A stretch of DNA of 64,000 nt from Eledone cirrhosa. Lineage: Eukaryota. This document shows, piece by piece, positions 4,001 to 53,677 of this stretch. The notes beneath the pieces were generated by a model. The model made no database searches and was not told where the DNA came from. It saw only the letters and a list, made by a program, of their open reading frames with translations. The stretch covers positions 17,670,001 to 17,734,000 of the forward strand of contig OZ024743.1 in assembly GCA_964016885.1 (NCBI GenBank), written 5' to 3'. The position numbers were made by a program, and so were the translations under genes. The first letter of the stretch is position 1, and each line of letters opens with the position of its first letter.

Positions 4001-4755
4001 GTAATTTATTCCGTGTGCTTACAAATGTTTCCACGCTGGCACTACAGCCTAGTTATGTTATGTGCAAATTTACACTATTTGCAGAACTCAATTGTAAAAG
4101 CTAAATTCTCTCACTATAAAATAACTTAACATTCGAACCCGTAACTATAACATCGCTTTCTAGCTAACCACCTTCTCTTCCCCCACACTACAAGACAATA
4201 CACTGCTTATCACTATAAATGGTAACTCAGTGCAATTCGCAGATTACTACTATGAACCCAAAGTTCACTCACCACATAGACTTCGTCTGTCCCCTCTCTA
4301 CCTCTCTCTCTGCATCCATTAAACTCTCTCTCTCTCTCTCTCTCGCCTTTGGCCTACCTCCCTCTCCACATATATGAACCTGCCCTCTGGGGCAACAAAT
4401 AATTACGACCTTAACTATCAACGCATCTCTCCAAAAGTAACCAGTATAATAAAACCTCTACCATCACATTTTGATTAAGATATCTACAAACCACTCTCTC
4501 CTATTTCTCCAACCCCTGCATATCTTTCTCTCTCTCTCCCTCTCCCCTACTTTTCTCTCTTCCTTTTCTACTCTATCTTCTCCAACAACCCCACTTAAGG
4601 GTATTTACATTGTACATATTACCATTCTGCTCTGAGGATACAGTGGTCGCAGCATTGGATATTTGAGTTCTGCAAATAGTTGTAAATTTGCACATAGCAT
4701 AACTAGGCTGTAGTACCACCGTGGAAACATTTGTAAGCACACGGAATAAATTACC
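4001..4755 (+). mobile_element. Penelope-like element remnant (inverted partial pseudo-LTR plus hammerhead)
   Basis: ~90 bp inverted repeat 4001-4092 / 4663-4754; hammerhead motif overlaps the right arm. Confidence 0.7.
4628..4739 (+). ncRNA. Type I hammerhead ribozyme with long stem II
   Basis: Stem I tgct/agca; core CTGAGGA (4632-4638); stem II tacagtggt..gcagc/gctgt..accaccgtg; GAAA (4724); short stem III ac-attt-gt; GUA cleavage triplet. Confidence 0.65.
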
Positions 4756-4933
4756 TTTTTATGATGTCTACCTGTTATTATTCATTCTTTATATACACTC
4801 CGGAATATAGAAGGATCAGGAAGTAAGTTTCTTCAACAATTCTTCCATAACTCGTAGAGTAACCTCTCACCGTACGTCAACCATATCCAGTGTAGTAATT
4901 AACCATTACTACATCTTGGATGATCCTATACCT

Positions 4934-4981
<48 letters not shown>

Positions 4982-4985
<4 letters not shown>

Positions 4986-5305
4986 ACAGTTTAGGTGAAA
5001 ATAAAATCCATTTTGCCTATTCAGTAGTGAAACATTTTATTATGACTTGAAGACAAATAACACGAGACATAAACAATGTATCATCTCATATTGCATAGAC
5101 TAGTGCAAACCATGATAAGCGTGCAAATACTTTCCTCTCTTTAAAAAAGCTTCAAGCTCAGGCATCGCTTGATATGTGACATTTATTTCAATGATTGGTG
5201 TTGCTGACCACAGGCAAGTCCCTGGCATGACCAAAACGCCAAGTCCGTGATGCTCATACTTAAGTATGAAGCGACGTCATTAAAAGAAATCAAGTTAAAG
5301 CGATC

Positions 5306-5379
<74 letters not shown>

Positions 5380-5601
5380 TTGCGTATGACTGTATATATG
5401 TATGTATTTAGTCGGGTAGGAGACATATATGTTTAAACATGAGCATAGATATATAATACATGCAGGAATGTTGGTAGACATTTATATACTATCTCGACAA
5501 ACTTAGAAACGTAGCTTAATTACTTATTTATTTAGTTAAGTTCTCCGGACTAAGAAGAACAATTAGGTAAATATTATCTGGTTGTCCTTCGAACTTATAT
5601 A

Positions 5602-5654
<53 letters not shown>

Positions 5655-5784
5655 ACAGTTTCGGTGAAATTAAAATGTTGCCTATTCTGTAGTGAAATAT
5701 GTTATTATGCCTTGACAAATACCACATCAGACATGAACAATATATCGTATCATATTGCAGAGACTAGTGCAAACCATGATAAGC
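4982..5784. repeat. Diverged ~135 bp direct repeat (4982-5120, 5651-5784), each copy directly after a (TA)n tract
   Basis: atcaacagttt.ggtgaaa...gactagtgcaaaccatgataagc occurs twice. Confidence 0.8.
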
Positions 5785-6542
5785 TGAGTAATTGAAGATA
5801 CTATATTCGGAAAACCGAAATTTTATGAAATCTCTGTTCATGTAGAAGAAGCTTGAACATATTTATTGTTTGTAACAATAGGTGGTCATGCAGGATATGC
5901 ATACATATATATATACATATATATCAAAAGTATAACTGAGAAAAATGTCCATTGCTAGGCCTCTGTTTGCTCTATTTTGGTAGCCATTATTTATACAGTG
6001 TCTAACATACTTAGATTTTCTGTGAATTCGATAGCTAATCAATACGCCCATGTATCATAATTAAAGCAACAATATATAACAAATCAATATAAATATTTAT
6101 TATTGGTACATTTTATATATTTTAGAAAACGATTTCTATTTTGCTGTTTAATGTATCAAATGAAATGATGTATATATCAACCTATAAACGCAGATATAAA
6201 ATACTAGCAGATTTACCCGGCGTTGCCCGGGCTTTGAAATTATAAGCAGAAGTCTTCAATAAATAATGCAAACGAATATTTAGTACAATCTTTGTACACA
6301 AAAAACTATACTGACAATGAAGGAAAACACTGAACAGAATGTAGTTATACAAATGATTAAAGACAATACACGTTGCAAATCTGTAAAAAAAACAGGCAGT
6401 TTTGCTAAAGTACACAAAGTTGTAATGAAAGCAGAGTGGTATACAAAGAAATATCAATGAGAGTAGAATAAGAGAAAATCTATTATTTGATGTGTATGGT
6501 TAAATTTTGAACTTATAATCAAAAATATCCTGCATGACATAT

Positions 6543-8090
6543 TCATCGGTATGTTTTGTAATGAATAAGGTGAAATAAAACAGAACTGTAATAAGAAAGC
6601 ACTTTAGGATAGACGATATTCCGTGAGCAGGCAACGTAGAATGGTCCGTGCGAAAAATAAGGCTCATCCAAGTGAATTCCAGCGACGGACAGAGTTTGAC
6701 CTTGCGACTTGTTTATGGAGATCGCAAAGGCAACACGAAGCGGAAATTGGATGCGGCGAAAGGAGAAGGGAGTATTCACACCTGATGTAGTCAGGCTAAT
6801 TTTTGTTATTATCACATCCTCGACTTTTACACATCCGGGTAGAATGGTAGCGTCAATACTAAGTGGAGACAGTTTTTTAACCACAAGGCGTGTACCATTG
6901 CATAGTTTTGGAGGAGTGTTATTTCTCAGCAAAATAACGGGCGTTCCCTCTTTCAAAACCAATGTATTAAGAAGTAAACCAGGAGGACTTAAAGAATTTA
7001 GAAATTCAACTTGATAATTAACCGCATCCTGTGGTTCGCATACAGTATCAATGGATTTATATATCGGTGGACATCCAGGATGAAGCTGAAGAAGCTGGTC
7101 GTTAATACAGCTAACCGTGATATATTGGGGTGCAAGAATGGCTCTTTCGCATACCCAATCAATATTCGTATAGTTATCACGCAAGTTCGGGAGTACACTC
7201 GCTTTGAGATCATCGACAGTTCCAACTATCTTGCAGATGTGATCAAATGCTATGTGTCCATCTGTATCCGGAGGTAGGTTACCATCTCCTATTGTAAGAA
7301 TGTCTCTAGAAAATGTTGATGACAGAGGGTCCCCATGCAACCTTGCACGCATGTTGGTAGTTAGTCTTAATGATGTCACTTGTCGCCACAATGGTGAAGT
7401 CTTAAGACATGCATTTACCGCATCAGCTCTTGTTCCTTTTGATATTATAGGAAGAGTCTGTCTGAAGTCTCCTGATAGCAGAAGGCCGACACCCCCCATA
7501 ACATCACTGCAATCCCGTATGTCTTGCAAAGACCTGTCTAGTGCATCAAGAGCACCTTTGTGCGCCATTGTGTACTCATCAAAACAATAAGGTGACACCT
7601 TCGCAGCAGATGAGCCCTTTCGGAGTCTTTGGTGATATGACCAGTAGGAGTTACCAATTTTGCCAAATCAAGGGACAATTAAAAAATTTAATGTGCCGTC
7701 CATCCATCAGGGAGCAAAGTTGCTGCGATTCCAGAGAACGCAACTGCTATTGCTGTCTCCTTACTCTGTCTAACCTTTGCAAGAAGAAGTTCAGTAACGT
7801 AAGTTTCCCTGTCCTCCCTGGAGCATCGGGGAAAAATATGCCACCTCTTCTTTGAAATACCGATTCAGTAATGGTGGTATACGCCAGTCACTGATCAACT
7901 AGAAGTTTTGGCTCATTATCTGTGACGTACAGGCTGAAATCATGGATGTAATAAGAAGTCTCCTGTATGATATCTGAGGTAAGTTTGTTTGAGTCCGTGC
8001 GATGAGTTTCTGGTAAACCGTAGTCGCGTAAAACATTTCCCAAATCAGAGCTAACTTTTCCTCAATATCAATGAGAGCTCTGTTGTATAA
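6543..8090 (-). pseudogene. Helitron Pif1-family (SF1) helicase, frameshifted
   Basis: ORF 6543-7598 has DE, GDFRQTLP, LTTNMRA, LCNGTRL, QFPLRVAFAISINKSQGQTL and YVACSR. A degenerate Walker A (DAPG.TGKT-like) lies near 7800-7830 on -. Confidence 0.9.
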
Positions 8091-8096
8091 TCTTTT

Positions 8097-9322
8097 TCTT
8101 TATATATATAACAGCGAGGATGTGTGTGTGTGTGTGTGTGTGTGTACAACTTTGGATACCTAAGCCTTTTACAATTATCAACCGAATTTGACCAAATGTT
8201 CTGTGCCCGTTGCACAGGTCGCTAATATGGTCACATCACAAACAGTTTTAAAATCGACCCATGTTGAGCAATAACAAATCGATAACAAAATTATCCGTAG
8301 CAAAATTGATGTAAGGGAGATAACCAACTTTATTGACAATCCTTATAAAAAAGGGAGATAACCAACTTTTCAGAAATATAAACATCAGATTCATTTAAAG
8401 ATTAATGTTATCGTTTGTTTCTTGTTTATTATTTGTTGCACTTTCAAAGTTAAAAACACAATTGTTGTTTTAACTTGTTTCACTATATTAAGTGTTAATT
8501 TTCGCGTTAAAGGCCTATTCTCGCTGCAGTCCCGAATTTCAGAGATTTTGATGATGGTTTGTTTATTTTTAGAACAATCGCTATGGGACTTTCCATTCAA
8601 ACATACTGGGACCTACAACTTTTACATTTTTAAAACTTTCGTAAGCCATGTTGATACAAACAAAATTGTTGCACTTTCAAAGTTAAAAAAACACTTGTTG
8701 CTTTAACTTGTTTCACTAAGGGCCTAATCTCGCAGCAGTCTCGAATTGACAAACCATCATGAAAATCACGTCAATTCGAGACTGCTGCGAGATTACGCCC
8801 TTACCGCATATAGTGAAACAAGTTAAAACATCAAGTTTTTTTTTAACTTTGAAAGTGCAACACATTTTTGTTTGTATCAACATGGCTTATGAAAGTAGCG
8901 ATACCGACTTTGAAGGTTTTACACAGGACGACATTCAGAATAAACAAGAAACAAACGATAATATTAATGATTTATCTTTAAATGAATCTGATGTTTATAT
9001 TTCTGAAATTTCGTCCGAAGATGATTGTTGTTTTGAAAGTGAAAACGAAGGTCTCCATATCTCCCCTCTCTCACTCTCTTTATAAGGATTCTCAATAATG
9101 TTCGTTATCTCCCTTACACTTTAGAAAAAATAATTTTGCTACCGATAATTTTGTTATCAATTTTTTATTGCTCAACTTGGGTTGATTTTAAAACTGTTTG
9201 TGATGTGACCATCTTAGCGACCTGTGCAATGGGCACAGAAAATTTGGTTGGTAATTGTAAAAGCCTTAGGTATCCAAAGTTGTACACAGACACACACGCA
9301 TCCTCGCTTTTATATATATAGA
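8097..9322. repeat. ~1.2 kb imperfect palindrome made of two opposed Helitron 5' ends, centre ~8760
   Basis: 8097-8420 is the reverse complement of ~8935-9322; 8635-8750 is the reverse complement of 8770-8897. Confidence 0.85.
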
Positions 9323-10816: not shown

Positions 10817-10974
10817 AGTAACAATAAAATGTCTGAATGAAAAAGCAACCATTCTCTGGGATATGCCAAAACATACAGACAGAGAGATCAAAGATAAGCG
10901 ACCAGATATAGTTTAAAAAATAATGGTTTCTTTTATTGGCTCAAGGCCAGCAATTTTGATGATACAGGCCTGAA

Positions 10975-11102
10975 AATACAGAAGATATGTCTTCCCATGA
11001 GAACAGGCTGTAGCATAAATATAGTATCCCCCACGTTCATGCCAGGTCAACTCATCTAACATATAGTGTCGTGGAAAAATGGTCATTAAACTGTGATGAT
11101 AA

Positions 11103-11159
<57 letters not shown>

Positions 11160-11160
11160 T
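10975..11160 (+). mobile_element. Probable SINE/RTE-type 3' end with (GAT)n tail
   Basis: ...gtggaaaaatggtcattaaac followed by a (GAT)n run. Confidence 0.4.
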
Positions 11161-11435
11161 TGTTGTTGATATACCTGTATACAAAGATTTATAAATGAAA
11201 ATATGAACTTTCTTTTGACTAAACAAATTATGGAAAGATTTGTTAATACAATTTATATTTTTATTTTTATTCTCGACTCTGAGTGATTTTCTAAAAAGTC
11301 AAATATTCCTGATGAAGTGGTGAGCGTCTTTAATTAATTAAACCCCTGTAATTTTAAGAGTGTCCTTTAATTATCCGTACACACATATATAAATTATATA
11401 AATACATGCGGCTATGTATATGTATATATATATAT
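11100..11435. repeat. Left arm of a diverged long-range inverted repeat (partner 16890-17125)
   Basis: cctgatgaagtggtgagc...aaacccctgtaattttaaga.tgtcctttaatt occurs reverse-complemented at 16945-17025; flanks also align. Confidence 0.75.
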
Positions 11436-11520
11436 GTATGTAAAAAATAGCGGAACAAGCGGTTATCAAGCAATTCTCTAAATAAATTAAAAAACGCTTT
11501 AAATAATCACCTGTTCTATT

Positions 11521-11601
11521 GCTGTTACCGACGGTTTCATCATTCCAAAAGATTGGAAATCCAAAGAATTTCCAATGGAAAGAAATGAATCTTCAGACAG
11601 C
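11521..11601 (-). ncRNA. Type I hammerhead ribozyme (inverted copy, intact core)
   Basis: Reverse complement of 11876-11955. Confidence 0.8.
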
Positions 11602-11875
11602 TTATTTCCACACTATAAGGTTGCTAGCCTTACAGTAAGTAAATATTTTGCTTCCTGTCCAACGCATGCGGTCAAGCCGTTAAAATGACACACACGCAAA
11701 ATCAGGTCGCAGATAATAGCTGTTTATTATAAACATGTTGATATTGCCACTAAAATTAGCAGCATTATTAAACGTTTTGTTCTCTACATAACGATAAAAA
11801 TTATAAAAGTGGATGAATACTTCAATATGTACTTTTACTTACTGTAAGGCTAGCAACCTTATAGTGTGGAAATAA

Positions 11876-11955
11876 GCTGTCTGAAGATTCATTTCTTTCC
11901 ATTGGAAATTCTTTGGATTTCCAATCTTTGGAATGATGAAACCGTCGGTAACAGC
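11876..11955 (+). ncRNA. Type I hammerhead ribozyme
   Basis: Stem I gctgt/acagc; core CTGAAGA; stem II tcatt/aatga with inner attggaaat/atttccaat; GAAA; near-palindromic stem III accgtcggt; GUA. Copies 2 and 3 have a mutated core, CTGCAGA. Confidence 0.85.
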
Positions 11956-13067
11956 AATAGAACAGGTGATTATTTAAATCGTTTTTTAATTTATTTAGAG
12001 AATTGTTTGATAACCGCTTGCTCCGCTAATTTTTATATTGTTCTGGTATCTCGAATTAGTACAATTAAACCACAAATATTATAAACACCTTGCATATTTC
12101 TACAAGTACATAGTACCTGTTGAAGTATTCATCCACTTTTATAATTGTTCTCCTTATGTAGAGAACAAAACGTTGAATAATGCTGTTAATTTTAGTGGCA
12201 ATATCAACATGTTTATGATAAACAGCTATTATCTGCGATCTGATTTTGCGTGTGTGTCATTTTAACGGCTTGACCGCATGCGTTGGGCAGGAAGCAAAAT
12301 ATTTACTTACTGTAAGGCTAGCATCCTTATAGTGTAGAAATAAGCTGTCTGCAGATTCGTTTCTTTCCATTGGAAATTCTTTGGATTTCCAATCTTTGGA
12401 ATGATGAAACCGTCGGTAACAGCAATAGAACAGGTGATTATTTAAATCGTTTTTTAATTTATTTAGAGAATTGTTTGATAACCGCTTGTTCCGCTATTTT
12501 TTATATTGTTCTGGTATCTCGAATTAGTACAATTGAACCACAAATATTATAAACACCTTGCATATTTCTACAAGTACATAGTACCTGTTGAAGTATTCAT
12601 CCACTTTTATAATTTTTCTCCTTATGTAGAGAACAAAACGTTGAATAATGCTGCTAATTTTAGTGGCAATATCAACATGTTTATAATAAACAGCTATTAT
12701 CTGCGACCTGATTTTGCGTGTGTGTCATTTTAACGGCTTGACCACATGCGTTGGGCAGGAAGCGAAATATTTACTTACTGTAAGGCTAGCATCCTTATAG
12801 TGTAGAAATAAGCTGTCTGCAGATTCGTTTCTTTCCATTGGAAATTCTTTGGATTTCCAATCTTTTGGAATGATAAAACCGTCGGTAACAGGTGATTATT
12901 TAAATCGTTTTTTAATCTATTTAGAGAATTGTTTGATAACCGCTTGTTCCGCTATTTTTTATATTGTTCTGGTATCTCGAATTAGTACAATTGAACCACA
13001 AATATTATAAACACCTTGCATATTTCTACAAGTAGATAGTACTTGTTGAAGTATTCATCCACTTTTA

Positions 13068-13068
13068 A

Positions 13069-13129
<61 letters not shown>

Positions 13130-13133
13130 TATT

Positions 13134-13215
<82 letters not shown>

Positions 13216-13224
13216 CACAAACAC

Positions 13225-13293
<69 letters not shown>
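13068..13293. repeat. Long compound (TA)n/(CA)n/(TG)n microsatellite
   Basis: Direct inspection. Confidence 0.97.
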
Positions 13294-13383
13294 ACGGTTT
13301 ACATATACATAAAGTCATAGATATATGTTGCAACTGGACAGTTGTAGCTCTATGAAGAATTAATAAATTAAATAATCAGAGCA

Positions 13384-13956
13384 ATATATCATAAATCATG
13401 TCCTTAGAATTATTATATAAAATATATAGTATTTCCGCTCCCAATTAGCATTATTAACCATATAAAAAATCAATTAGACCAAGCTATAAGAGTAAAGGCT
13501 TTTATGAAGAAATCTTCTCACAAATAACCGAAAGCGGCCTCTTCGCGATGGCCCCAATGGAGTATTTATCCAAAATTTCAACAGCATGTAGAAAATGACT
13601 AAATATACCATCAACCATACACAATTAGGTGCAAATTCAAACTTAGAAGAAATGTGTACATACCGTAATTATATCTCTACCATGCTTTCATCCGTATGTT
13701 TAGACATCCAATTAATAGGATATGTCCGGAGTATCGGATTCATCAGGAGACAAACTCAAAATTAGACATTTAGTTTTCCAAAGTGATCCCGCCAAAAATA
13801 GATTCAAAAATGGCTAAAAATCGTGACGTGGCAGTGGTCAAGTGAGAAAGAATGTGCTTGGACTAATTGAATTTTTATATGGTTAATTATGCTAATTGGG
13901 AGAGGAAATGGTATATATTTTATCTAATAATTCTAAAGACATGATTTATGATACAT
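13384..13956 (-). mobile_element. Penelope-like remnant with ~100 bp terminal inverted repeat and internal hammerhead
   Basis: 13384-13484 is the reverse complement of 13856-13956. Confidence 0.7.
13673..13752 (-). ncRNA. Type I hammerhead ribozyme
   Basis: - strand reads tgtctc CTGATGA atccg...cggat GAAA gcatg GTA gagata. Confidence 0.8.
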
Positions 13957-13959
13957 ATA

Positions 13960-14875
13960 TATATATGAAAGACGTAAAATAAGAAAATTAAAAAAATTAA
14001 AAATCAACTTACTTAATAAAGTTTTCACTCCAACTAATTAGTTTCTGTAAGGGGATAAATATAGTTACGTGATACAACTATAGAGAATTCCTGATGACGT
14101 AAGGAATTCTCTATAGTTGTATTACGTAACTATATTTATCCCCTTACAGAAACTAATTAGTTGGAGTGAACATTTTAGTAAGTTGATTTTTTATTTTTAA
14201 AATTTTCTTATTTTACGTCTTTCATATAATTGTTCTGCATCCCCCTGCATAGAACCACAAAGGTACTAAGACATAACATATATATTTGCTAGCATGGGTG
14301 TACATCTGTACACATATGTTGGTAGATGTACTAATTCTCTATATTCATCTCCAAATATTTGGTTGAGCAAAACTTGCCAACATTTACTGCTGATTCATGG
14401 TAGTAGTAGGCTCTTGTCATAATACCACCCCGCTCCTAACTGATTAACCTCAGTGTCACGTGATTGATTCTTTAGAATCTGCCACTGACCAGTGGTAGTG
14501 AATGTTTTCAGTGCTCTGGAATTTAGTCCTCGCTAGCTTTATTCCATCCACTGAATTATTATTTTTATATGGGTTCCTAGTATCCGCGCATCGCCTGGGA
14601 ACTTAGCTGAGATGGACTACCTGATGACGTAAGGAATTCTCTATTCTTGTATTACGTAACTATATTTATCCCCTCACAGAAACTAATTAGTTGGAGTGAA
14701 CATTTTAGTAAGTAAGTTGATTTTTAATTATATAAATTTTCTTATTTTACGTCTTTCATATAATTGTTCTGCATCCCCCTGCATAGAACCACACAGGTAC
14801 TAAGACATAACATATATATTTGCTAGCATGGGTGTACATCTGTAGATATATGTTGGTAGATGTACTAATTCTCTC
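13960..14875 (+). mobile_element. Penelope-like remnant: inverted partial repeat plus partial tandem 530 bp unit
   Basis: 13960-14092 folds back on 14102-14230; 14091-14340 repeats at 14621-14875; bounded by (TA)n. Confidence 0.8.
14616..14697 (+). ncRNA. Type I hammerhead ribozyme, slightly degenerate (second copy 14091-14167)
   Basis: actac CTGATGA cgtaagg...cct(t/c)aca GAAA ctaattag TT ggagt; palindromic stem III; one mismatch in stem I. Confidence 0.65.
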
Positions 14876-14899
14876 TCTCTCTTTATATATATATATATA

Positions 14900-16795
14900 T
14901 ATAATATTAAATCAACATATTAATAAATATAGACATCCAACGTAATCAAAATATATTTTATTATATATATTTCGGAGGTACTGTGGTGTTTTTTCAGTAC
15001 GTCCTCATCAGATAAAATATATAAAAATTGATGTGTAACATACCTCAACTCAACTGTGCTGATGGTTCAATTCCACTCTTGGCAGTGATTAATTACAACA
15101 AAACTTAATATTTATATACCATATGTAGTAACATGACAAACTAAATATAACGAAGAGAGTGAGTAGGAGAAAGTGTAGAAAAAATAAATAAATACATGAA
15201 AAATAATTACATAAACACATAAGTACATAAATGTTTAATATTTAAATATTTAAATATGTAAATATCCTTATTAGAGAAAGAAACCAAATGAGAGACAGAG
15301 AGAGCTAAATAGAAGAGAAAGGGAAAAGATGAGAAGATGAAGATAAAAACATAGAGAGGGAGATAGAGATGGTAGAATATAAAATTGCATAAGGAAAATA
15401 GAGGAAGAAAAGGGTGGCATGATGCGTGATTGTTTTTTTTAAATATTAAGTTAGGTAGAAGCGATCAGTTAAATACCGTGAAATGTTTAATCTATTGTAT
15501 TTTATAGAAATTGTACTATTATATTATATCAAAATTAAAACAATATAGCATAATATAAAATAATATAAAATATTTACAATGATAATCTGGAGCATAGTTA
15601 CATTAATAAATACATTCAATAATTTAGTTATAACATTCAGAGTTAGAAACATTATTAACTAACAATGATGAGTAAATAGTTATGCGAGTGTTTAACTTAA
15701 TTTACTTTGATATTAGCATCTGTATATGTATTTTATATAATGTTTAGAAATATAAATATTATAAACAATACTATTTAAATCAATACTTGTCAATTACATA
15801 TATGATTAATTCTTAGTTATATTTTCGCTTGAGAATATTATTATTTCGATTCAACCAAATCTTATTCTATTCAATACTATAGATCAAGTTAAATACAGAT
15901 TAATAATCAATTTGGATAAAACGAAAATTATACACGATAAATGTAAACAATAGCTCCGACCGACTTATATACACGTTTAAATTAACTAAACCGTTTGAAA
16001 GCCTCAATATATTACAGATCTCAAATTTAGAAAATTCAAAACTTAAAAAGAGGATTCAATATCAAACTAAAGGTATTTAATCAAGAGATTAACCTACTCT
16101 ATGAAAGAACCGATAAGCATTTCCTAAGGTGAGGTAGAACATTATACATAATATCAATAATAACAATAATAACAATGATAGTAGCATTACAAGAATTATT
16201 AATAAGAGTCAATATCGTTTCTCACTCGGTCAATCATGATAGTTTAATAATTGTTTCTACTTTTGGCACAAGGCCAGCAAATCACCAGTACATTACTGGT
16301 ACTTTATTTTATCGACCCCGTAAGGATGTATCATCTCTTTGTTTTTATCTTCATCTCTTTATCTTTTCCCTTTCTCTTCTATTTAGCTCTCTCTCTCTCT
16401 CTCATATGGTTTCTTTCTCTAAGACGGATATTTACATATTTAAATATTTAAATATTTAACATTTATGTACTTATGTGTTTATGTAATTATTTTTCATGTA
16501 TTTATTTTTTTTTTCTACACTTTTTCCTACTCACCATCTCCATTATATTTAGTTTGTCATGTTAGTACTTATGGTATATAAATATTGAGTTTTGTTGTAA
16601 TTAATCACTGCCAAGAGTGGAATTGAAACATCAGCACAGTTGAGTTAAGGTATGTTACACATCAATCTTTATATATTTTATCTCATGAGGACGTACTGAA
16701 AAAAACACCACAATACCTCCGAAATATATATAATCAAATATATTTTGATTACTTTGAATGTCTATATTTATTAATATTTTGAATTAATATTAATA
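14900..16795 (-). mobile_element. Penelope-like remnant with ~460 bp inverted repeats around a ~970 bp AT-rich spacer
   Basis: 14900-15360 is the reverse complement of 16330-16795; each arm holds a hammerhead. Confidence 0.75.
14956..15017 (-). ncRNA. Minimal type I hammerhead ribozyme (copy at 16676-16740 on + has mutated core CTCATGA)
   Basis: - strand reads tttat CTGATGA ggacgtactg aaaaaacacca cagtacctcc GAAA tatat ATA ataaa. Confidence 0.85.
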
Positions 16796-16889
16796 ACTCC
16801 AGAAAAACCTTTTTTTCCAGTTGAGTGCTTCTAATCTATTGTAAACTATATTCATTGATTAATCAATGAACCTTGTTTAACTTTTGGCT

Positions 16890-17125
16890 ATATATATATA
16901 CATATGCATGTATTTATATAATTTATATATGTGTGTATGTATATCAAATTAAAGGACAATCTTAAAATTACAGGGGTTTAAACGTGTAATTAATTAATTA
17001 AATATGCTCACCACCTCATCAGGAGTGTTTAGTAAAAAGTAAATTCATATTTCCATTCATCAATCTTAGAATACATTATATTAACATCTTCATCATCATC
17101 ATTATCATCACCATCATCGTCATTA
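16890..17125. repeat. Right arm of the diverged inverted repeat (partner 11100-11435)
   Basis: Reverse-complement alignment by eye. Confidence 0.75.
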
Positions 17126-20100
17126 AAATATATATACGTACACGCACACATTTACATATATATCTATATATCTATATATATATTGATTCACTCGCAACAG
17201 AAGAGGAAATAACAATATTTTAATGCTGAAAAAATCACATCCAGAGATTTATCACTTTATATCCTAATTAGCTAAACCGTTGTCATGTTTCATTCGATTT
17301 ATTTTCATAAGACAAGAATTGGTAATATAAATATCGGCATCAGTGTTAGAAGAAAAATATCCGATGTGTAATTTACAATCACTTATTTAATGCCGAAATA
17401 TCAACGCCCTCGTCTGGAGTGTTCATTGCATAACTTTTATCAATTAGTTATGTTGTTGCGTGTTTAACAGTAAAGCAGAAAAGGGCTCGAAACATATGAA
17501 TAATTTTAGATACATTTCTCCTTTTCAATTTAACGTTAACATTGCCCATATTTCTGGAAATGATTTACACATTGTTTCTTATATTTAAACTTATTTATTT
17601 CTGTATGGAACTATAGAGGCTGACAAAGAGAACAGTAGATTACTGATAAACAACATTACAAAATATTAAATGGAAATATACTCAAAAATGGATTTTAATA
17701 TACAGAAAGAAGCATAAGTTATTAGGATTAAAATAATACGGCCTGAGGTAAGCGCTAGGAATTTAAAGTATTTATAAAGATAAAAAAACTAAAATGTATT
17801 ATCTTTTACTGAAAAACGTTTCTTAAAATCATGGATCAATTATACACTGATTAAATAAGTTAGTTAATACATATCCCTGAAAGATGGAGATACATTGAAT
17901 AGATACACTTAATGATTCTAACAAGGCTCCTAAATTACGGTGTAATGCTGCAATACCCATTACGGAAAATAAAGTTCTCCTGCTATTCGCCATGTCTATA
18001 TATGTTTTAAATGATTATACATGTAAAAATGTTGATAAGTTCATGAAAGCAGTGGGCAAGATTGAAAATTAGATATCTCTCTGCATTTATTATGAAATGC
18101 TACAAAATTCCACCGTGTACTTAAAATAAAGGCAGCGAATTAGATTAATCTTTTATTGGCAATTCACACAGGTGGAAATCGATCCATGCATCTACCGTAC
18201 AGCACACAGCTGCAAATATATAATAATAAAATAAACCTGTGAATCGTTTACTGCATTCATATATCTCTTAACATTTGGCTAAAAATGATGAATTTGTGGA
18301 TAAATCAAAACGATTTCTAGCAATGTTAAGCACTATTACGCCAAATATTCTATTGCGATGAGACAATAGAAGTGTAATGATAGATTAATTTAATAACATA
18401 ACGCATTACCAACACGCGAAATTAACATAATTCAGCAAAATAGTATAGTATATTCTGCCATACTAAATCTGTGATATGAACGTTTTAGAACATGCATCTT
18501 AATTTAGTTAACTTGATATGAATGGTAGAGATGATTATGCATGCAAGTATCTCATTTTTGTATAGATTAACATTCATTGGATGTCTGTCACTGATAACTA
18601 ATTTTATAAGGCAACTGTCTTTTCCGATCGCATTAAAATCATTATAGGCTGAATCATTTAGACTTAGGAGAGACTTCACTCCATTTAAATGTCAACAAAA
18701 TCATATTGGATTAATTTGTATACCAATAGTACTTCTCATATATAAAGGGATAGTTTGAATATAGCTTACAATAGAGTTGACAAATACATGAACAGTTTAT
18801 ATACGAACCCATTTCGAGAACAAAACCACGATGGCATGTGGCTTAGTGTGTTTATATCAAAACAATAGCTCTCTCAATTTGAAATGTCCTCATTGCATAA
18901 GCTGTATAAATTGTGTCCATGAATGATGCTTAACTCAGTCAAATACTGAAGATTGGTATCCTGCAAGGAATAAATATAGATGTGCTACATTTTTAACTGA
19001 TTATTATTATGTTTTTATAATATAAGACTCTATCCGAAATTGAATCAATTGAATATGATTTTAGTCAAACCACTACTATAATGCAGAGTTTTAGCACGGG
19101 TCATGCCTTCGTAATATTTTGCGGGAGTATATGGGAGTATAAAGAAAAACATATTATTGTAGTATAATTTTAAATCACATTTATGAAATCCCATCATAGA
19201 AACAAATGTCGAGAATTGATTATTTGAGGCTATAGCCGATGTGCATAAAGTTGATATTGAAAAGACGTGAAATTGGACTGTGACCAGACAGAGATAAATC
19301 ACTCTCCAGAAAAATCCGATATTTCTCCCATCTTAAAATCTCATCTAAATCAAGAGAGGAACACAATTAAAGCTATAGAGGAAAAAATATGTTAATTCTA
19401 CTTGGTTTTAATATTCAATTTCAAAACACTGAGCCAAGAACCTAAATGAATACTTGCAAAACATGATATGCGACATTCTAAGGATTCTGCCAAATCGCCG
19501 TCTCACGAAACATTTTAATCACTTTTAATAAAATATCTCAATTTAAAGATTTCGTGCTAAACCTTACTTAGGTACACAGTACTGATTTTAATTTTGCAAA
19601 CCAATATGTTCATACCGATTACGCCCGTAATTGAAGTGATGAAACAACGAAGTATGCCGAATTATAGACCGATCGAAAAATAGTTAAATGTGAACCACTT
19701 TCACATCTGTTTATTTATGACGATGTCATTTTGCCTGGCCTGTAGTGTATTGTCTTCTTGCTACACATTACTAAATCGAATTGCGAAACTACAAGAGAGA
19801 AGGAAATTAAATAAAAATAAGCATTAGGAGAAATACGTTCTAAATGTACAATTTTATTGCTTTTGATAATTGAAAGACTGTTTTATGAATATAATTTATA
19901 ACCACAAATAATACACTGTGTCCTCTAAGGGACATGATTCCTTTGCACCACACCATGATGGCTACAAGGTAAACTCCAATAATCTGTTTGTATTCTTCAG
20001 GTATAATGTTGAGTGCTTCTTTATTTCATGGTTCCGAATCCATGGATGTGCCGTAAGCTTTGTACGGCAGATGCACTAACCTGCGAACAAGTTCAAGCAT

Positions 20101-43730: not shown

Positions 43731-45812
43731 ATGGCTACGAAAAAGAAATTTCATACGTCACTCCCACTCATTCCGTCTTCTTCTTCCTCAATCATCACTA
43801 CAGCAGAGAGAAGATTGTCTCTCTCCCTCCCTTCTTTAAATGTGTCTCTCTCCCTCCCTTCTCTTTCGCAAGCGACGAAAGAAAAGAAAAGTCTCGTGCA
43901 AAGCGTGCAAGGTTTCTCCACGACGACGACGACAGCGACGAAACAGGTGTGCGGGAAATACGAAAACCCAGTTCATTCGTCTGACGTCAGGAATAATAGC
44001 AGTAGCAGCCGTAATAACAACAGCAACAGTGACAATGAAAACAACAGTAGCAGCCGCAACAGCATCACCAGCAGCATAAACAACAACAGCATTAGCAGCA
44101 GCAACACCAACAACAACCACAGCAACAGCGGCGGAGGCAGTAGTCGTAGTACCTGCAGCAACAACAAAAGTACCAGCAGCTCTGACGACAACAACAACAG
44201 CAGAGAAAAACCAATCTCATTTGCAGGTATTGCGAAAAACTTGGAAACAATCCTCATAACAAATGAGGAATTAGAGGAAGCGAAGAAGATGGTGACAAAG
44301 AACGGACACTGAGCAATCTGCAAGGCAGCGGAAAAATTTTTCGAAACCCAAGAGCACTGTACGGTCACGTACCGTACAGTAAGTACAAAATCCCGTAGGG
44401 TGGAAAGAGCCACAGAGGCCCAAATACAAAAAGCCTTGGGGTCTGTGTGGCAGCGGAAAACGCACATCACCCGAGGCAAAAAATATGCCACCGTAGACGT
44501 ACTTTTTGCCACACCCCAGGAGGCAAAGGCCCAATCAGTAGTGACCCTAAGGAGCGAGGAAATGGTGTTGGTGCCCTCCTACTGTGGGCAAAAAATTGTG
44601 AGGGTCAAACTGACCCACGTCCCCCCCGGAATGACCCCTTCTTGGCTGGCCGCGTCTGTCCTCGTCGGAATCGAGGACAAAACAACTGTACTGCAAGTAC
44701 AGAAAAAAGTAAGAGAAGATTGGGTCGGCTCCTCCATTGAGATGCTAATCCAAACCAACCAGGAGTGCATCGAAGCTATCCCGGATGTGATAGACTTCGA
44801 TAACGGCACTCAACTGCCCATAAGTGTTGAGGGCAAACGCCCGAAATGCTTTCGCTGTGGATCGAAGACTCACCTCAGGGCCTTCTGCAATGAGAAGACC
44901 CTGAGAAAGGAGAAAACCCCCCTCCTTCCGAATCCGGCTCCACGGCTACCAGCAACAGGACAAGCGGCAACCAGGAAAGATAGGCCCGTGGCACCCATAC
45001 CCACTCCACGGAAATCAAAAACAGCAGCAGCAGTGGAAATACTAACAACAACAACAGCAATACCAAATGCAGCTGCAACAGAGACTCCAGTGCAAACATC
45101 ACCAACAACAACAAGTGAAAGAGTGGAGCTGGTACCCCTCCCCGACCTCACAGAATCAGAGATGGAGTGTGAGGTGGGAGAGAGATGGCAAAAGGTCGTA
45201 AGAAGGCACAAACGCAGAAGCAGCGCATCGTCGCCTTTGAAAAGGGAGGAAAGAAATGAGAAAAGGGTAAAGTCTACTGCAAAGAGACCCACAGCAGCAA
45301 CAACACCAACACCATCACCACCCACACTAGCACCACCATCACCACCGCCAACAACACCTTTAACACCACCACCACAAGCACCAACATCGCAAACACAACA
45401 ACAAAACACACACACCCAGCAACAACGACAAGAAAATAGCAGAACCACACCCCACCCCCAGAAAAACAAATGCACGGCAATAAACACACACAACAAGAAA
45501 CTAATGACTTACATAATTGAACACACAGACATTTCACAACAGGACTACATAATACCAGCACCAATCAAAACGCCAACTAACATAAGACTGCTAAAAATAG
45601 CACAGAAACAATACACAAACATTAAAACGAAATTCCCCAACGCAGTTGGTGATTTCAGGGACCTAGGAGGAACCATCAATCGAAGAGTATATTCAGACAT
45701 TCTCTTAGAAGAGCCGACGACCAGCCGAAGGGACGATTCAACGGTCCCTTCACCAGACGATCAAGTGAAAAGGGATGTAAAAACCATCCCTCCTCTACCA
45801 AAAGTACGGTAA
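43731..45812 (+). pseudogene. Tx1 ORF1 (~693 codons) with a single in-frame TGA at 44310-44312
   Basis: ORFs 43695-44312 and 44400-45812 are in the same frame; CFRCGSKTHLRAFC knuckle; TGA sits where the 1694 copy has Arg (probable CGA>TGA). Confidence 0.85.
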
Positions 45813-45847
45813 GTGGTCTTTCCCATCTTTTCCACTCTATTTTAAAC

Positions 45848-48800
45848 ATGACCTCACTCAGAATAGGCAGCATAAATGCGCGTGGCTTGGGGTCGTCATG
45901 GAAGCAGGGTCACCTGCTCAACGACCTCAGGTCACTAAACATAGATGTAGTGGCCATCAGCGAGACCAGAATCTCCGAAGCACGGGCCTTCGCACCAATC
46001 TTCGGCGGCTACGATGTGTACGCATCTCCCAGCCGTCCTGGATCGGGTGGAGGAGTTGCTGTGCTTTTTCGGAGAGGTTTGGATCTCGCCATACGGGCCA
46101 TCTTCCTGGACCCAGAGGGTAAGCTGGTGGTGCTGGACGTGACCAGCGGAGACGGGCAAGCTTTCAGGCTAGTGGCCGTCTATGCCCCGACAGGAGCAGG
46201 GCGGCCTGATTTCTTCCGGCGTCTGGAGACCTTTCTTGGAACGTCCCGCTCTTTAGTGTTAGTGGGCGACTGGAACGGGATCTTAGATGCACGCTGGGAC
46301 TGTGTGGGATTAGCGGATAGGGGTGGAGGGTGCAAGAGCCTCACCAACCTGCTCAGGCGTTTTGAAATGTCTGACAGGTACCGATTGGATTTCCCGAATG
46401 TGCCAATGTGGACTTGGACAAACCGCATAGGGTCATCCAGATCATATCTAGATAGAGTATTTTGTAGGGAAATAGATAGGTCTAGCATAGGCTGTCCACA
46501 ATTCAAGATAGTCAGCTACACGGACCACAAATTCGTGACCTGTGTGCTTGACTTAGATAGGCTTCATAGACGAGGACCCGGCTACTGGAAGCTAAACGCG
46601 TCCTTACCAGCGCGCAAGGCCTACAGAGACCGGATTAGCGAACTAGTTAAGCGGGCGTTGACGGGGGCCATCGTCAACAACAAGTGGTGGTTTGCTCTGA
46701 AAAGAGCGATTAGAATAGAATCGATTAGGTTTAGTAAGGCTTTAGCAATAGAGAAAAATAGAGCAGAGGGAGAACTAGTTAGAAAATTAGACGAGGCGCT
46801 TAGCAAAGGCATTGCGACCGACGTGCTTGCGGCGAAATTGGCCCTTGACCAATTCTTCAATGCAAAGCACGAAGGCTGCGTTGTCAGAGCTACGGTGCGT
46901 GCTCTCAGACACGAGGGGACGAAAGCCGTTCAATGGGCCCGAGTGGCGGAGGCGCGTCGTGGCAACAAAGCCACGATCCGGTCTTTGGTGGACCACGACG
47001 GGCGCATGCTACTCGATCCCGGGCAAATGTGTGAAGCTTTTCAGCGACACTTCGCTCAGCTGTTCGGGGGCAGCGGGGGGCCGGGTAGAGGGATGGACTT
47101 TAGTGTCTACCTCGACGGACTGCCGCGGCTCTCGGCCACTGAGGCGAGGTGTTGCGAAAAGCCGATAACAGCCGCTGAAGTACGGGAGGCAATGACTGGC
47201 TGCACAAGGGGTAAATCGCCTGGTTTGGATGGTCTGCCCTATGAACTTTACGTACAGATGCCAGACTTGTTCGGAGGCCTCTTGGCGGACGTCTACTGCA
47301 ACTGGCAACAGAACGGGAGAATTCCCAGTTCTGTGAGCCGAGGAGCGGTGGCACTGCTGAGAAAGGATCCGAACAAGGGGGATAACATAGACAATTTCCG
47401 GCCCATAACTCTGCTAAACACAGAGTTTAAGATTTTGGCCAAGGTGCTAGCAAAGAGGTTGGCGCTTGTCGTTGGTGGTCTGGTGGGAGAGGCGCAGACA
47501 TGCGCCATTCCCGACAGATCCATCCACGACAACCTCCACCTCATGCGATACATCGTAGAGAGGGTAGCTAGGGAACCTGGCACGGGTGGGTCCTTGATCA
47601 ATTTAGATCAGTCGAAAGCTTTCGATAGGGTCGACCATCGTTACCTAGCGGCAGTCCTGAGGGCGGCTGGCTTTGGGCCCGTCTTCAGAGGCTGGATCGC
47701 TGCCATGCACAGCGACATCTGCTCTGTGGTGAGAGTGAACGGTCACCTGTCGGAACCGTTCAACATCATGCGCTCGGTCCGCCAAGGATGTCCCCTCTCG
47801 TCCCTCTTGTACGTATTGACTCTCGAGCCATTACTGCACAAACTGGAGACGTTGAGGGGAGTCCCGCGCGAACTAGGATGCGGAAGATCAGTGTCAGCAT
47901 ATGCGGACGATGTCACCGTAGTGGTGTCGAACGCCAAACACATCGAGGCGATCGGCACTACACTAAGAGAATACGAAGCGGTGACAGGAGCAATGATCAA
48001 CCAGGAAAAGTCAGTGGGACTGCAGCTCGGCACCTGGAGAGGCAGGTCCATGCCGTCCAACAGCGTCGTCGGGCGCTGGACGGACGGACCGGTTAAATTG
48101 CTAGGGGTCTGGTTCGGTCCGGACCTCCAGATGGACAAAAACTGGGACGAGGTGACGAGCAGGGTGGCTTCTCTCACCCAGAAATGGGCGGAGAGGAAGC
48201 TATCCCTGAAAGGTCGAGCGGAGGTGGCTAACGCGTACATCGCGTCTGTCATCTGCTACCGCCTAACCGTCGTACCTTGTCCTAAGCCTCGCCTGACTGC
48301 GCTGGAGCGTTTGCTCTTTCGCTTTTTGTGGAAGGGACGTGCTCCGATGGTCAGGCGGTCCATCTGTTGTCAACACCCGCTACGTGGAGGGCTGGGCATG
48401 CCGTGGCTGATGATGCGCAGGCACGCGCTCAGGCTACGACATCTCCACCTCTTCCTCGACGGTGATCAGGTGTGGTCGCCGTTTGCTAGACGCGTTTTTC
48501 CCCAGCTCGTTTCCTTGACGGAGCTGCAGTCCTGGGTCAAGCGAAGACCGAGAGGGAGCGCCTGGAGACTGGAATGTCTTCAGGCGCTCACAGCCCTCGA
48601 CCAATCGGGCAATGTGATCGGTGGAAACTCCACCTCGGCGTTCTATAGAGGATTAGTGGAGGGGAAGAGCGACGACGTACTTGGGGAAACTCTAGGCGTC
48701 GACGAAAATCAACTAGCCAATCTCTTCGGAAGAACTTTCGGGCCAGGGCCTATGGACAACTTCCAGAAATCTCTGGCCTGGCAGTGCTACCGAGGAGCCT

Positions 48801-49267
48801 TGCCAGTTCGGGATAAACTCTACAGGCATGGAGGTGCCGTCAGCCGGGCATGTCCGAGATGCGCGCAGGGCGACGAAACCGTCCTGCACGCACTCGTCCA
48901 GTGTCCGAAAATTGCTGAATTGTGGGTTTATGTCGAACACCTCCTGTCGCGTTTAGGACGGATCCAGCTATCATCTGAGTCTATCGTGAGGATTGCCCCG
49001 CCCTCCTCCTTTAACCGGGAAGGGCAGGCAGTTTTTATCTGTCTGGTGGCCATGGCGAAAGAGATAGTATGGTGGACACGTTTGAAAGGGCTGAAGACGA
49101 GCACTTACCTCTTCGGTGATGCTCTGATTGACTTTTTCAAATTTCATTTGAAAAGGAAAATCAGAGTAGAGAAGGAAGTGCTCTCTTCCCAGCATTTTGT
49201 TGAAAGATGGGTGAGAGAAGCAAGAATGGCCCGAGTGGATGGGCCGACTCTGAGTATATATCTGTAA
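45848..49267 (+). CDS. Tx1/L1-clade ORF2: AP-like endonuclease, reverse transcriptase and C-terminal CCHC (1139 aa, intact)
   Basis: INARG, ISET, GDWN, LDRV, TDH; SPGLDG, KAFDRV, QGCPLS, YADD; CPRC...HALVQC. Confidence 0.97.
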   Translation: MTSLRIGSINARGLGSSWKQGHLLNDLRSLNIDVVAISETRISEARAFAPIFGGYDVYASPSRPGSGGGVAVLFRRGLDLAIRAIFLDPEGKLVVLDVTSGDGQAFRLVAVYAPTGAGRPDFFRRLETFLGTSRSLVLVGDWNGILDARWDCVGLADRGGGCKSLTNLLRRFEMSDRYRLDFPNVPMWTWTNRIGSSRSYLDRVFCREIDRSSIGCPQFKIVSYTDHKFVTCVLDLDRLHRRGPGYWKLNASLPARKAYRDRISELVKRALTGAIVNNKWWFALKRAIRIESIRFSKALAIEKNRAEGELVRKLDEALSKGIATDVLAAKLALDQFFNAKHEGCVVRATVRALRHEGTKAVQWARVAEARRGNKATIRSLVDHDGRMLLDPGQMCEAFQRHFAQLFGGSGGPGRGMDFSVYLDGLPRLSATEARCCEKPITAAEVREAMTGCTRGKSPGLDGLPYELYVQMPDLFGGLLADVYCNWQQNGRIPSSVSRGAVALLRKDPNKGDNIDNFRPITLLNTEFKILAKVLAKRLALVVGGLVGEAQTCAIPDRSIHDNLHLMRYIVERVAREPGTGGSLINLDQSKAFDRVDHRYLAAVLRAAGFGPVFRGWIAAMHSDICSVVRVNGHLSEPFNIMRSVRQGCPLSSLLYVLTLEPLLHKLETLRGVPRELGCGRSVSAYADDVTVVVSNAKHIEAIGTTLREYEAVTGAMINQEKSVGLQLGTWRGRSMPSNSVVGRWTDGPVKLLGVWFGPDLQMDKNWDEVTSRVASLTQKWAERKLSLKGRAEVANAYIASVICYRLTVVPCPKPRLTALERLLFRFLWKGRAPMVRRSICCQHPLRGGLGMPWLMMRRHALRLRHLHLFLDGDQVWSPFARRVFPQLVSLTELQSWVKRRPRGSAWRLECLQALTALDQSGNVIGGNSTSAFYRGLVEGKSDDVLGETLGVDENQLANLFGRTFGPGPMDNFQKSLAWQCYRGALPVRDKLYRHGGAVSRACPRCAQGDETVLHALVQCPKIAELWVYVEHLLSRLGRIQLSSESIVRIAPPSSFNREGQAVFICLVAMAKEIVWWTRLKGLKTSTYLFGDALIDFFKFHLKRKIRVEKEVLSSQHFVERWVREARMARVDGPTLSIYL

Positions 49268-49535
49268 ACTAAAGGTGGAAAACTGGGAGAGGGCACTTGC
49301 CTTGGTGGTCAGGGTCATTGTGGCTTTTTACTGGGCTTTCTCCACAAATGTCCCTCCGAAGTCTCCCCCCTATTGGGGAATTTTTCATTGTTATTTTCAT
49401 TGTTATTTTTGTTACATCCTCTGTTTTTGTTTTTTTACACGCAGAAATGCCCATTTGTACCGTCCTGCATTGTCCTGCACTGTCCTTAATGTCTACTTTA
49501 TGTAAACCCTTGTGGTTAATAAAGAAATCATTATT

Positions 49536-52500: not shown

Positions 52501-53621
52501 CTGATGATGCGCAGGCACGCGCTCAGGCTACGACATCTCCACCTCTTCCTCGACGGTGATCAGGTGTGGTCGCCGTTTGCTAGACGCGTTTTTCCCCAGC
52601 TCGTTTCCTTGACGGAGCTGCAGTCCTGGGTCAAGCGAAGACCGAGAGGGAGCGCCTGGAGACTGGAATGTCTTCAGGCGCTCACAGCCCTCGACCAATC
52701 GGGCAATGTGATCGGTGGAAACTCCACCTCGGCGTTCTATAGAGGATTAGTGGAGGGGAAGAGCGACGACGTACTTGGGGAAACTCTAGGCGTCGACGAA
52801 AATCAACTAGCCAATCTCTTCGGAAGAACCTTCGGGCCGGGGCCTATGGACAACTTCCAGAAATCTCTGGCCTGGCAGTGCTACCGAGGAGCCTTGCCAG
52901 TTCGGGATAAACTCTACAGGCATGGAGGTGCCGTCAGCCGGGCATGTCCGAGATGCGCGCAGGGCGACGAAACCGTCCTGCACGCACTCGTCCAGTGTCC
53001 GAAAATTGCTGACTTGTGGGTTTATGTCGAACACCTGCTGTCGCGTTTAGGACGGATCCAGCTATCATCTGAGTCTATCGTGAGGATTGCCCCGCCCTCC
53101 TCCTTTAGCCGGGAAGGGCAGGCAGTTTTTATCTGTCTGGTGGCCATGGCGAAAGAGATAGTATGGTGGACACGTTTGAAAGGGCTGAAGACGAGCACTT
53201 ACCTCTTCGGTGATGCTCTGATTGACTTTTTCAAATTTCATTTGAAAAGGAAAATCAGAGTAGAGAAGGAAGTGCTCTCTTCCCAGCATTTTGTTGAAAG
53301 ATGGGTGAGAGAAGCAAGAATGGCCCGAGTGAATGGGCCGACTCTGAGTATATATCTGTAAACTAAAGGTGGAAAACTGGGAGAGGGCACTTGCCTTGGT
53401 GGTCAGGGTCATTGTGGCTTTTTACTGGGCTTTCTCCACAAATGTCCCTCCGAAGTCTCCCCCCTATTGGGGAATTTTTCATTGTTATTTTCATTGTTAT
53501 TTTTGTTACATCCTCTATTTTTGTTTTTTTACACGCAGAAATGCCCATTTGTACCGTCCTGCATTGTCCTGCACTGTCCTTAATGTCTACTTTATGTAAA
53601 CCCTTGTGGTTAATAAAGAAA

Positions 53622-53623: not shown

Positions 53624-53677
<54 letters not shown>

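Follow-up and report, generated by a model that had tools for sequence, protein, structure and literature searches.

Results

Layout of the chain

We analysed a 64,000-nucleotide (nt) window of the Eledone cirrhosa genome (contig OZ024743.1, positions 17,670,001 to 17,734,000), and within it a chain of hammerhead-bearing repeats at 11094-17125 whose architecture recalls the one seen in Penelope-like elements (PLEs). Four elements, here called A to D, lie nearly end to end and are capped on both sides by a fifth family, E, in the order E, A, B, C, D, E, with a TA tract between every neighbouring pair (Table 1). An earlier note on this DNA had proposed four unrelated elements with (TA)n spacers, inverted or tandem repeats and hammerheads, and all of these are present in the sequence. 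Its element bounds for B (which extends to ~13295) and D (to 16890) omitted tails of 89 nt and 94 nt, respectively, and its chain of four lacked the E copies at either end. Pairwise blastn of A to E together with two families from outside the chain, F and G, covered 21 of 21 pairs; in every pair both top matches were AT-rich and no longer than 25 nt, so that the families are mutually unrelated. The three inner spacers are also unlike one another. No end of A to D is further than 10 nt from a tract of (TA)5 or longer (eight of eight, the tails of B and D counted), and 1.1% of the window lies within 12 nt of one; with F added the count is 9/10, both figures coming from one window and being partly selected, because the finding was picked for its TA flanks.

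With the hammerhead strand taken as sense, A to D share one design, in which a short inverted arm is joined to a long tailed arm and both 3' ends face outward. The inverted arm is found in all four, a partial tandem additionally in A and C (2/4), and B and D contain no tandem unit. Measured past the cleavage site, the long arm exceeds the short arm by 103 nt in A, 89 nt in B, 112 nt in C and 94 nt in D; the distance from cleavage site to ends is 64-191 nt in A, C and D, and 294-383 nt in B. PMC8557442 names as PLE hallmarks partial tandems, a 5' copy in inverted orientation and, on one end only, a tail of 30-40 nt. The earlier proposal of a PLE-type architecture is borne out in that the partial tandems, inverted 5' copy, one-sided (if longer) tail, 3' type I hammerhead with its palindromic stem III, and (TA)n flanks match the accounts given in PMC8557442 and PMC4209133.

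Inverted repeats and TA flanks, present in each element, would also suit TA-targeting DNA transposons with long terminal inverted repeats, either MITEs (miniature inverted-repeat transposable elements) or Mutator-like elements, in which the hammerheads would be passengers. Mutator-like elements that target TA microsatellites are reported (PMC4486113), and a TA-flanked, MITE-like element lies nearby at 8101-9320. The latter, which served as our control, is symmetric, with terminal inverted repeats of ~250 nt and an internal palindrome (8635-8896), and has no CTGANGA core on either strand, whereas the ends of A to D are offset by 89-112 nt in 4/4 cases, partial tandems occur, and the hammerhead stands in fixed polarity ahead of the 3' ends. 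We regard a DNA transposon origin as very unlikely.

Six chain junctions have a longer copy that shows how the template reads on beyond the end, and in five of them the end coincides with a TATA or ATAT word (post hoc P ~2e-4, the test window having been set after the data were seen); the short end of F falls outside this pattern. Units 2 and 3 of A have four changes in common that neither unit 1 nor the inverted arm shows; duplication or conversion at a later time, or a mixed template, could each account for them. Simple twin priming on one RNA was rejected for A, because the outer end of its inverted arm is not adjacent to the start of the forward arm in unit coordinates.

Arm divergences range from 4.0 to 8.9% with no significant difference among elements (chi-square P 0.21; A versus B P 0.086), and under the calibration quoted in PMC13282606 (0.09 per 25 million years) would correspond very roughly to 6-12 million years. 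The insertions could not be ordered by age from these divergences. The lack of a significant difference, together with the near-perfect abutment of the elements, could instead point to one composite, Terminon-like unit, mobilised or co-transcribed whole, whose modules the hammerheads would cut apart. This is disfavoured because hammerheads lie on both strands, so that no single transcript carries them all; furthermore, the families are unrelated, each has its own inversion junction, and F shows the same design standing alone. We consider a composite unit highly improbable.

The E copies differ by 7.6% across 119 columns, and were for that reason weighed as terminal repeats of one element enclosing A to D. 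This option is disfavoured, if not settled, and two separate E insertions fit better, because the hammerhead remnant of E faces inward and the right copy is TA-flanked on both sides. In both copies the first core box survives, as do vestiges of stems I and II, while the second box is GTAA, and their hammerhead folding is no better than that of shuffles. An 80-nt AT-rich insert (11225-11304), present in the left copy only and just 5' of its core, replaces part of stem I.

Long TA tracts and inverted repeats are difficult assembly targets. This difficulty has been noted for PLEs in particular (PMC8557442), and the inversions might in principle be assembly or amplification artefacts around microsatellites. 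A chimeric read, however, would give near-identical arms, whereas those observed differ by 3-9% substitutions and by indels; we attach next to no credence to an artefact.

Hammerhead motifs and their predicted folding

A strict type I descriptor found four cores in 11443-16795, where 1000 dinucleotide shuffles averaged 0.001 and never exceeded 1, and a relaxed descriptor without the palindrome filter found six in 11094-17125 against a mean of 0.014 (1000 shuffles). Stem III is palindromic in 6/6 of these relaxed-descriptor cores, compared with 1/14 of the shuffled matches. Over the entire window the palindrome-filtered descriptor returned seven motifs, two each in A and C and one each in B, D and F (4632-4735), and all eight CTGANGA cores in 11094-17125 fall inside the elements. 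An Rfam scan (4227 families, E up to 5) gave no hammerhead and only microsatellite-driven microRNA matches under the gathering score, so the motif calls rest on our custom descriptor and its controls. The hammerhead search suggested earlier was thus positive by descriptor and negative by Rfam, and the claim of a type I hammerhead in each element stands, with the correction that the C motifs (stem I 4/5 pairs) fail the strict filter that A, B and D pass. Intact cores are kept by A1, A-inv, B and D-left, that is, by 2/4 A copies and 1/2 D copies; A2, A3 and D-right have core changes, A3 (at ~12817) combining that of A2 with further damage.

Folding resolves helix II of A, B and C1, which is 50, 50 and 51 nt long (31 nt in D, 85 nt in F), into a base of 5-7 base pairs (bp), an internal loop and an apical hairpin. 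The interior of helix II, which the descriptor leaves unconstrained, folds better than shuffles in A (z -2.8), B (-2.1), C (-2.3) and D (-4.1) and not in F (-0.3), and folding of the whole motif is significant in A1 and D-left only. Stem III alone gives a fold of 0.0 kcal/mol; as a self-duplex it is computed at -11.3 kcal/mol in A, -9.0 in C, -4.0 in B and -3.2 in D. Dimeric cleavage is predicted for these hammerheads, which would act on multimeric RNA as dimers because stem III is unfolded in the monomer. The self-duplex values agree with the dimer model put forward for minimal hammerheads, for which low in vitro activity is reported (PMC4209133), and the hammerhead of PAc is reported to require protein and to be dispensable for insertion in vitro (PMC11167929). 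For the A monomer (11874-11957), the fold of lowest computed energy, ~5 kcal/mol below the active one, has the first core box paired with the palindrome of stem III, and this pairing is a possible built-in off state.

Hammerhead tandems, namely A (468 nt, 2.7 units) and C (~530 nt, ~1.5 units), invite comparison with non-LTR retrozymes (LTR, long terminal repeat), which would spread through small circular RNAs and rolling-circle reverse transcription and would never have borne an open reading frame (ORF). Retrozymes are described as non-coding, AT-rich type I hammerhead tandems of 150-450 nt, a size that the A unit approaches (PMC7229834; bioRxiv 10.64898/2026.07.22.740005), and A and C also agree in their size range and low GC content (PMC7229834); the two origins overlap, moreover, as a 2026 preprint argues for retrozymes as PLE derivatives (bioRxiv 10.64898/2026.07.22.740005). 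The inverted arms and tails found in all four elements are, by contrast, marks of PLE insertion. B and D lack a tandem unit, the tandems reach at most 2.7 units, several families are stacked in one microsatellite, and no arm begins or ends at the cleavage site, the ends lying 64-383 nt downstream. The changes common to A units 2 and 3 also suggest later local duplication or conversion. Retrozymes are expected to have two or more consecutive tandem units with complete hammerheads; here C has two cores, each with a mismatch in stem I, and A has an intact one in 1/3 units (unit 1). A retrozyme origin is, in our judgement, unlikely.

Comparison with known Penelope-like elements

The closest match is the Hydra clade of endonuclease-bearing (EN+) PLEs, for which both a (TA)n target and, close to the 3' end, a canonical type I hammerhead are described, for example in Hydra-1_Obim from Octopus (PMC8557442). 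Further points of likeness, according to the same source, are a palindromic stem III of ~4 bp with a 1-3 nt centre, an inverted 5' copy (as in Penelope-13_HM) and the U-U at the base of helix II in A, which we counted in 14 of the 26 Hydra rows of its File S2. A to D differ in having no reverse transcriptase (RT)-endonuclease ORF, and by eye they showed no match to the consensus 3' ends of Hydra-1_Obim, Naiad_Obim and Naiad_Ovul. The Hydra clade is recognised by RT phylogeny and by RWK, DKT and CxCX5C motifs with no CCHH, and no unit has a recoverable ORF. As the defining ORF is absent, the units cannot be placed in a PLE clade; they resemble Hydra- or Neptune-type PLE ends, membership being unprovable without an RT.

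The Naiad group, which the earlier note had invoked, is a precedent for (TA)n targeting but not for the hammerheads. Naiads, such as Naiad_Obim and Naiad_Ovul, share the (TA)n target, the tandem and inverted structure and the tail, and have left remnants in cephalopods, but canonical hammerheads are described as absent from them (PMC8557442), whereas A to D have full cores. Naiad is therefore the wrong precedent for hammerhead-bearing copies; the Hydra clade, as portrayed there, has both features. For Neptune and Penelope/Poseidon elements, dimer-type hammerheads and opposite-strand pairs 100-700 bp apart are reported, with a microsatellite bias described for Neptune and a tail set by two internal RT starts for PAc (PMC4209133, PMC11167929); here, in contrast, stem III is 8-10 nt long rather than absent.

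Coding capacity and points against a Penelope-like origin

The earlier statement that no intact RT or GIY-YIG ORF remains in the array is upheld, as Pfam, word-index, phmmer and Protein Data Bank (PDB) searches all lacked a relevant match, the PDB search giving none at E up to 10. A tblastn search of 11001-17200 with 120 relatives of the neighbouring ORF2 as queries reached a best E of 0.014, and we therefore see no non-LTR RT remnant there. An exact 26-nt pattern from A had no match in bacterial and archaeal genomes, as expected. Since the PLE-type ORF, with a telomerase-like RT and a GIY-YIG endonuclease, has no significant match, A to D are not autonomous PLEs, and we propose that an autonomous PLE mobilised them as its derivatives.

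Several observations weigh against this origin, beside the partial selection of the TA flanks. In Pfam, 18 six-frame translations of 11160-16890 gave only unrelated matches under the cut-offs, with no RT or GIY-YIG, and eight sub-frames of D and F gave 0/8. Word-index protein searches with the minus and plus frames of D found no match among 1094 and 157 candidates, respectively, and neither did phmmer with D 15600-16148 against 1.84 billion protein representatives. Helix II is 31-85 nt long here, compared with a loop II of 3-10 nt in the Hydra rows of PMC8557442, although its File S2 includes a loop II of ~30 nt in two spike-moss PLE rows. Five short motifs from our elements were not found in the Naiad/Chlamys/Hydra supplement of that paper, where line breaks can hide a match. 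The tails are ~100 nt long (89-112 nt) rather than the 30-40 nt reported for PLEs, and the RT starts of PAc are reported not to be homologous to the target (PMC11167929), in contrast to the TATA junctions seen here. Whole-motif folding is not significant in B (z -1.3), C1 (-1.1) and F (+0.7). Finally, F has its short end within a non-LTR endonuclease gene rather than at TA, the one such case among the ten ends of A to D and F.

On the plus strand of D's middle (~15680-16135) we read, by eye, the motifs YIYD, IQPNL, TKIIHDK and YRSQI, with an RT-like spacing as in the consensus DNA of Naiad_Obim and Naiad_Mmer (also translated by eye). Of the Naiad protein layout, an N-terminal GIY-YIG, CxC and a C-terminal RT with an IFD, this by-eye spacing in D is the only hint. 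Identity is low, the searches give no support, and stop codons are not depleted in D's middle. It may perhaps be a PLE RT remnant, a reading that we hold only tentatively. Two short fragments, at 16250-16333 and 10925-10960, presumably resemble a common octopus short interspersed nuclear element; the former sits exactly where the arms of D cease to align.

Neighbouring elements

F, outside the chain, has its long end at a (TA)23 tract (4938), and its arms differ by 3.3%. Family G is present as two direct copies (4984-5120 and 5653-5784; 10.8% substitutions), each directly after a (TA)n tract, with no hammerhead that passed our descriptors, and together F and G make up a second TA-centred cluster, smaller than the chain, at 4001-5900. 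Beside the MITE-like control element, the minus strand of 6543-7900 holds a 374-aa PIF1-type helicase ORF (Pfam PF05970, PF21530), likely a Helitron remnant.

The elements of the neighbouring ATT array are non-LTR retrotransposons with an ORF2 of APE, RT and zf-RVT domains (Pfam), which from the domain order we take to be of L1/Tx1 type; the top match among the ORF2 relatives has 82% identity, and that from Argonauta hians 73%. The TA array was earlier assigned to a different retroelement class from the ATT array, and this agrees with these domains and with the relaxed descriptor, which found no hammerhead in 20000-64000. In that region, non-LTR elements of several families, in either orientation, adjoin one another at the (ATT)n tracts, after which a recurrent sequence follows. 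At 45442-53629 a non-LTR unit of 4094 nt is exactly duplicated in tandem (99.5% identity), with a ~1200-aa ORF per copy, APE, RT and zf-RVT being shown for the first; this is either a very recent duplication or an assembly duplicate.

Table 1. Positions of the elements, hammerheads and spacers of the chain, and of element F, in the window.
Feature	Positions	Strand	Remarks
E left copy	11094..11421	+	(GAT)n, ~250-nt body, degenerate hammerhead (core CTGATGA at 11309); 3' end at TA
Spacer E/A	11422..11437		degenerate (TA)n
A inverted short arm	11438..11833	-	3' end 11438, 88 nt beyond cleavage site; 4.5% substitutions versus forward arm
Hammerhead A-inv	11526..11596	-	intact core
A forward arm	11834..13067	+	2.7 tandem units of 468 nt; 3' end 191 nt beyond cleavage site; 103-nt tail
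Hammerhead A1	11881..11950	+	intact core; stem I 5/5 pairs; 50-nt helix II, U-U at base; stem III ACCG-T-CGGT
Hammerhead A2	12349..12418	+	mutated core CTGCAGA
Spacer A/B	13068..13294		225-nt compound (TA)n/(TG)n/(CA)n
B long arm	13295..13855	-	holds 89-nt tail 13295-13383
Hammerhead B	13678..13746	-	intact core; stem I 6/6 pairs; 50-nt helix II; stem III A-GCATGG-T
B inverted short arm	13856..13953	+	8.9% substitutions across 101 columns
Spacer B/C	13954..13966		(TA)6; shares terminal TATA of C
C inverted short arm	13962..14092	-	CCT overlap with forward arm, within GAATTCC...GGAATTC hairpin
C forward arm	14090..14874	+	~1.5 units of ~530 nt; 112-nt tail
Hammerhead C1	14091..14162	+	stem I 4/5 pairs; 51-nt helix II; stem III A-CTAATTAG-T, perfect palindrome
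Hammerhead C2	14621..14692	+	C1-type motif; stem I 4/5 pairs; helix II weakened
Spacer C/D	14875..14903		(TC)n(TA)10
D inverted short arm	14898..15357	-	6.1% substitutions versus right arm
Hammerhead D-left	14962..15011	-	intact; stem I 10/10 pairs; 31-nt helix II; stem III A-TATATA-T
D unique middle	15358..16333	+	without detectable protein homology
D long arm	16334..16890	+	mutated hammerhead; 94-nt tail 16796-16890
Hammerhead D-right	16682..16732	+	mutated core CTCATGA
Spacer D/E	16889..16900		(TA)6
E right copy	16896..17125	-	inward-facing; degenerate hammerhead core at 17022; 5' end against degenerate TA tract 17128-17182
F	4001..4932	+	outside chain; inverted arm 4001-4091; hammerhead 4632-4735, 85-nt helix II

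Discussion

We interpret the chain as very probably a series of two-armed hammerhead repeats, derived from non-autonomous or decayed PLEs and inserted serially into a TA microsatellite. We envision that an RT-GIY-YIG protein encoded elsewhere, most likely of Hydra or Neptune type, would bind the element RNA and nick both strands of (TA)n. Each nick would prime reverse transcription internally, 3' of the hammerhead and often at a TATA word able to pair with the target, and the two start sites would yield a short arm and a tailed long arm. The inverted structure might then arise from two complementary DNAs (cDNAs) joined through microhomology, or from a first cDNA folded back on itself. Purified PAc, a PLE protein, is reported to cut and extend both strands at AT-rich DNA, with two internal RNA starts that set the tail (PMC11167929). 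The TA left on both sides would re-expand by slippage, so that every insertion would provide two new targets and the array could grow; as TA is kept on both sides of each insertion, the target would be self-renewing. Acting as dimers, the hammerheads would have processed RNA multimers; several copies are dead by now, and the array as a whole is likely without function.

A bolder version would see an undescribed octopod PLE radiation, marked by a helix II that is long and in two parts (50, 50 and 51 nt across three mutually unrelated families), 100-nt tails, TATA priming through pairing with nicked (TA)n and self-renewing multi-family arrays, with D as a Naiad-type element that keeps a full hammerhead against the published rule; we consider this combination quite unlikely. 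In Octopus vulgaris, 31 recently active Penelope-like families are reported (PMC13282606), and the families described here may already be in Octopus vulgaris or Repbase repeat libraries. Our literature search, with subscription journals and Repbase outside its scope, found no work whose subject is a chain of several PLE families in a single microsatellite, or the hammerheads of octopods, which is weak evidence of novelty.

These are new families of a known kind, likely PLE-derived, and not a new system; their unusual traits are a long helix II, tails of ~100 nt and junctions on TATA words. Every unit combines a short arm with a long one, so that the template beyond the insertion point can be read directly, and the arm pairs make it testable whether PLEs prime by pairing of RNA with the target, as five of six junctions suggest, or without it, as with PAc in vitro. 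Four natural hammerhead variants with a long helix II are also on hand for cleavage assays. The locus would thus present a microsatellite as a permanent landing pad for one retroelement class, beside an ATT array that serves another, within 64 kb.

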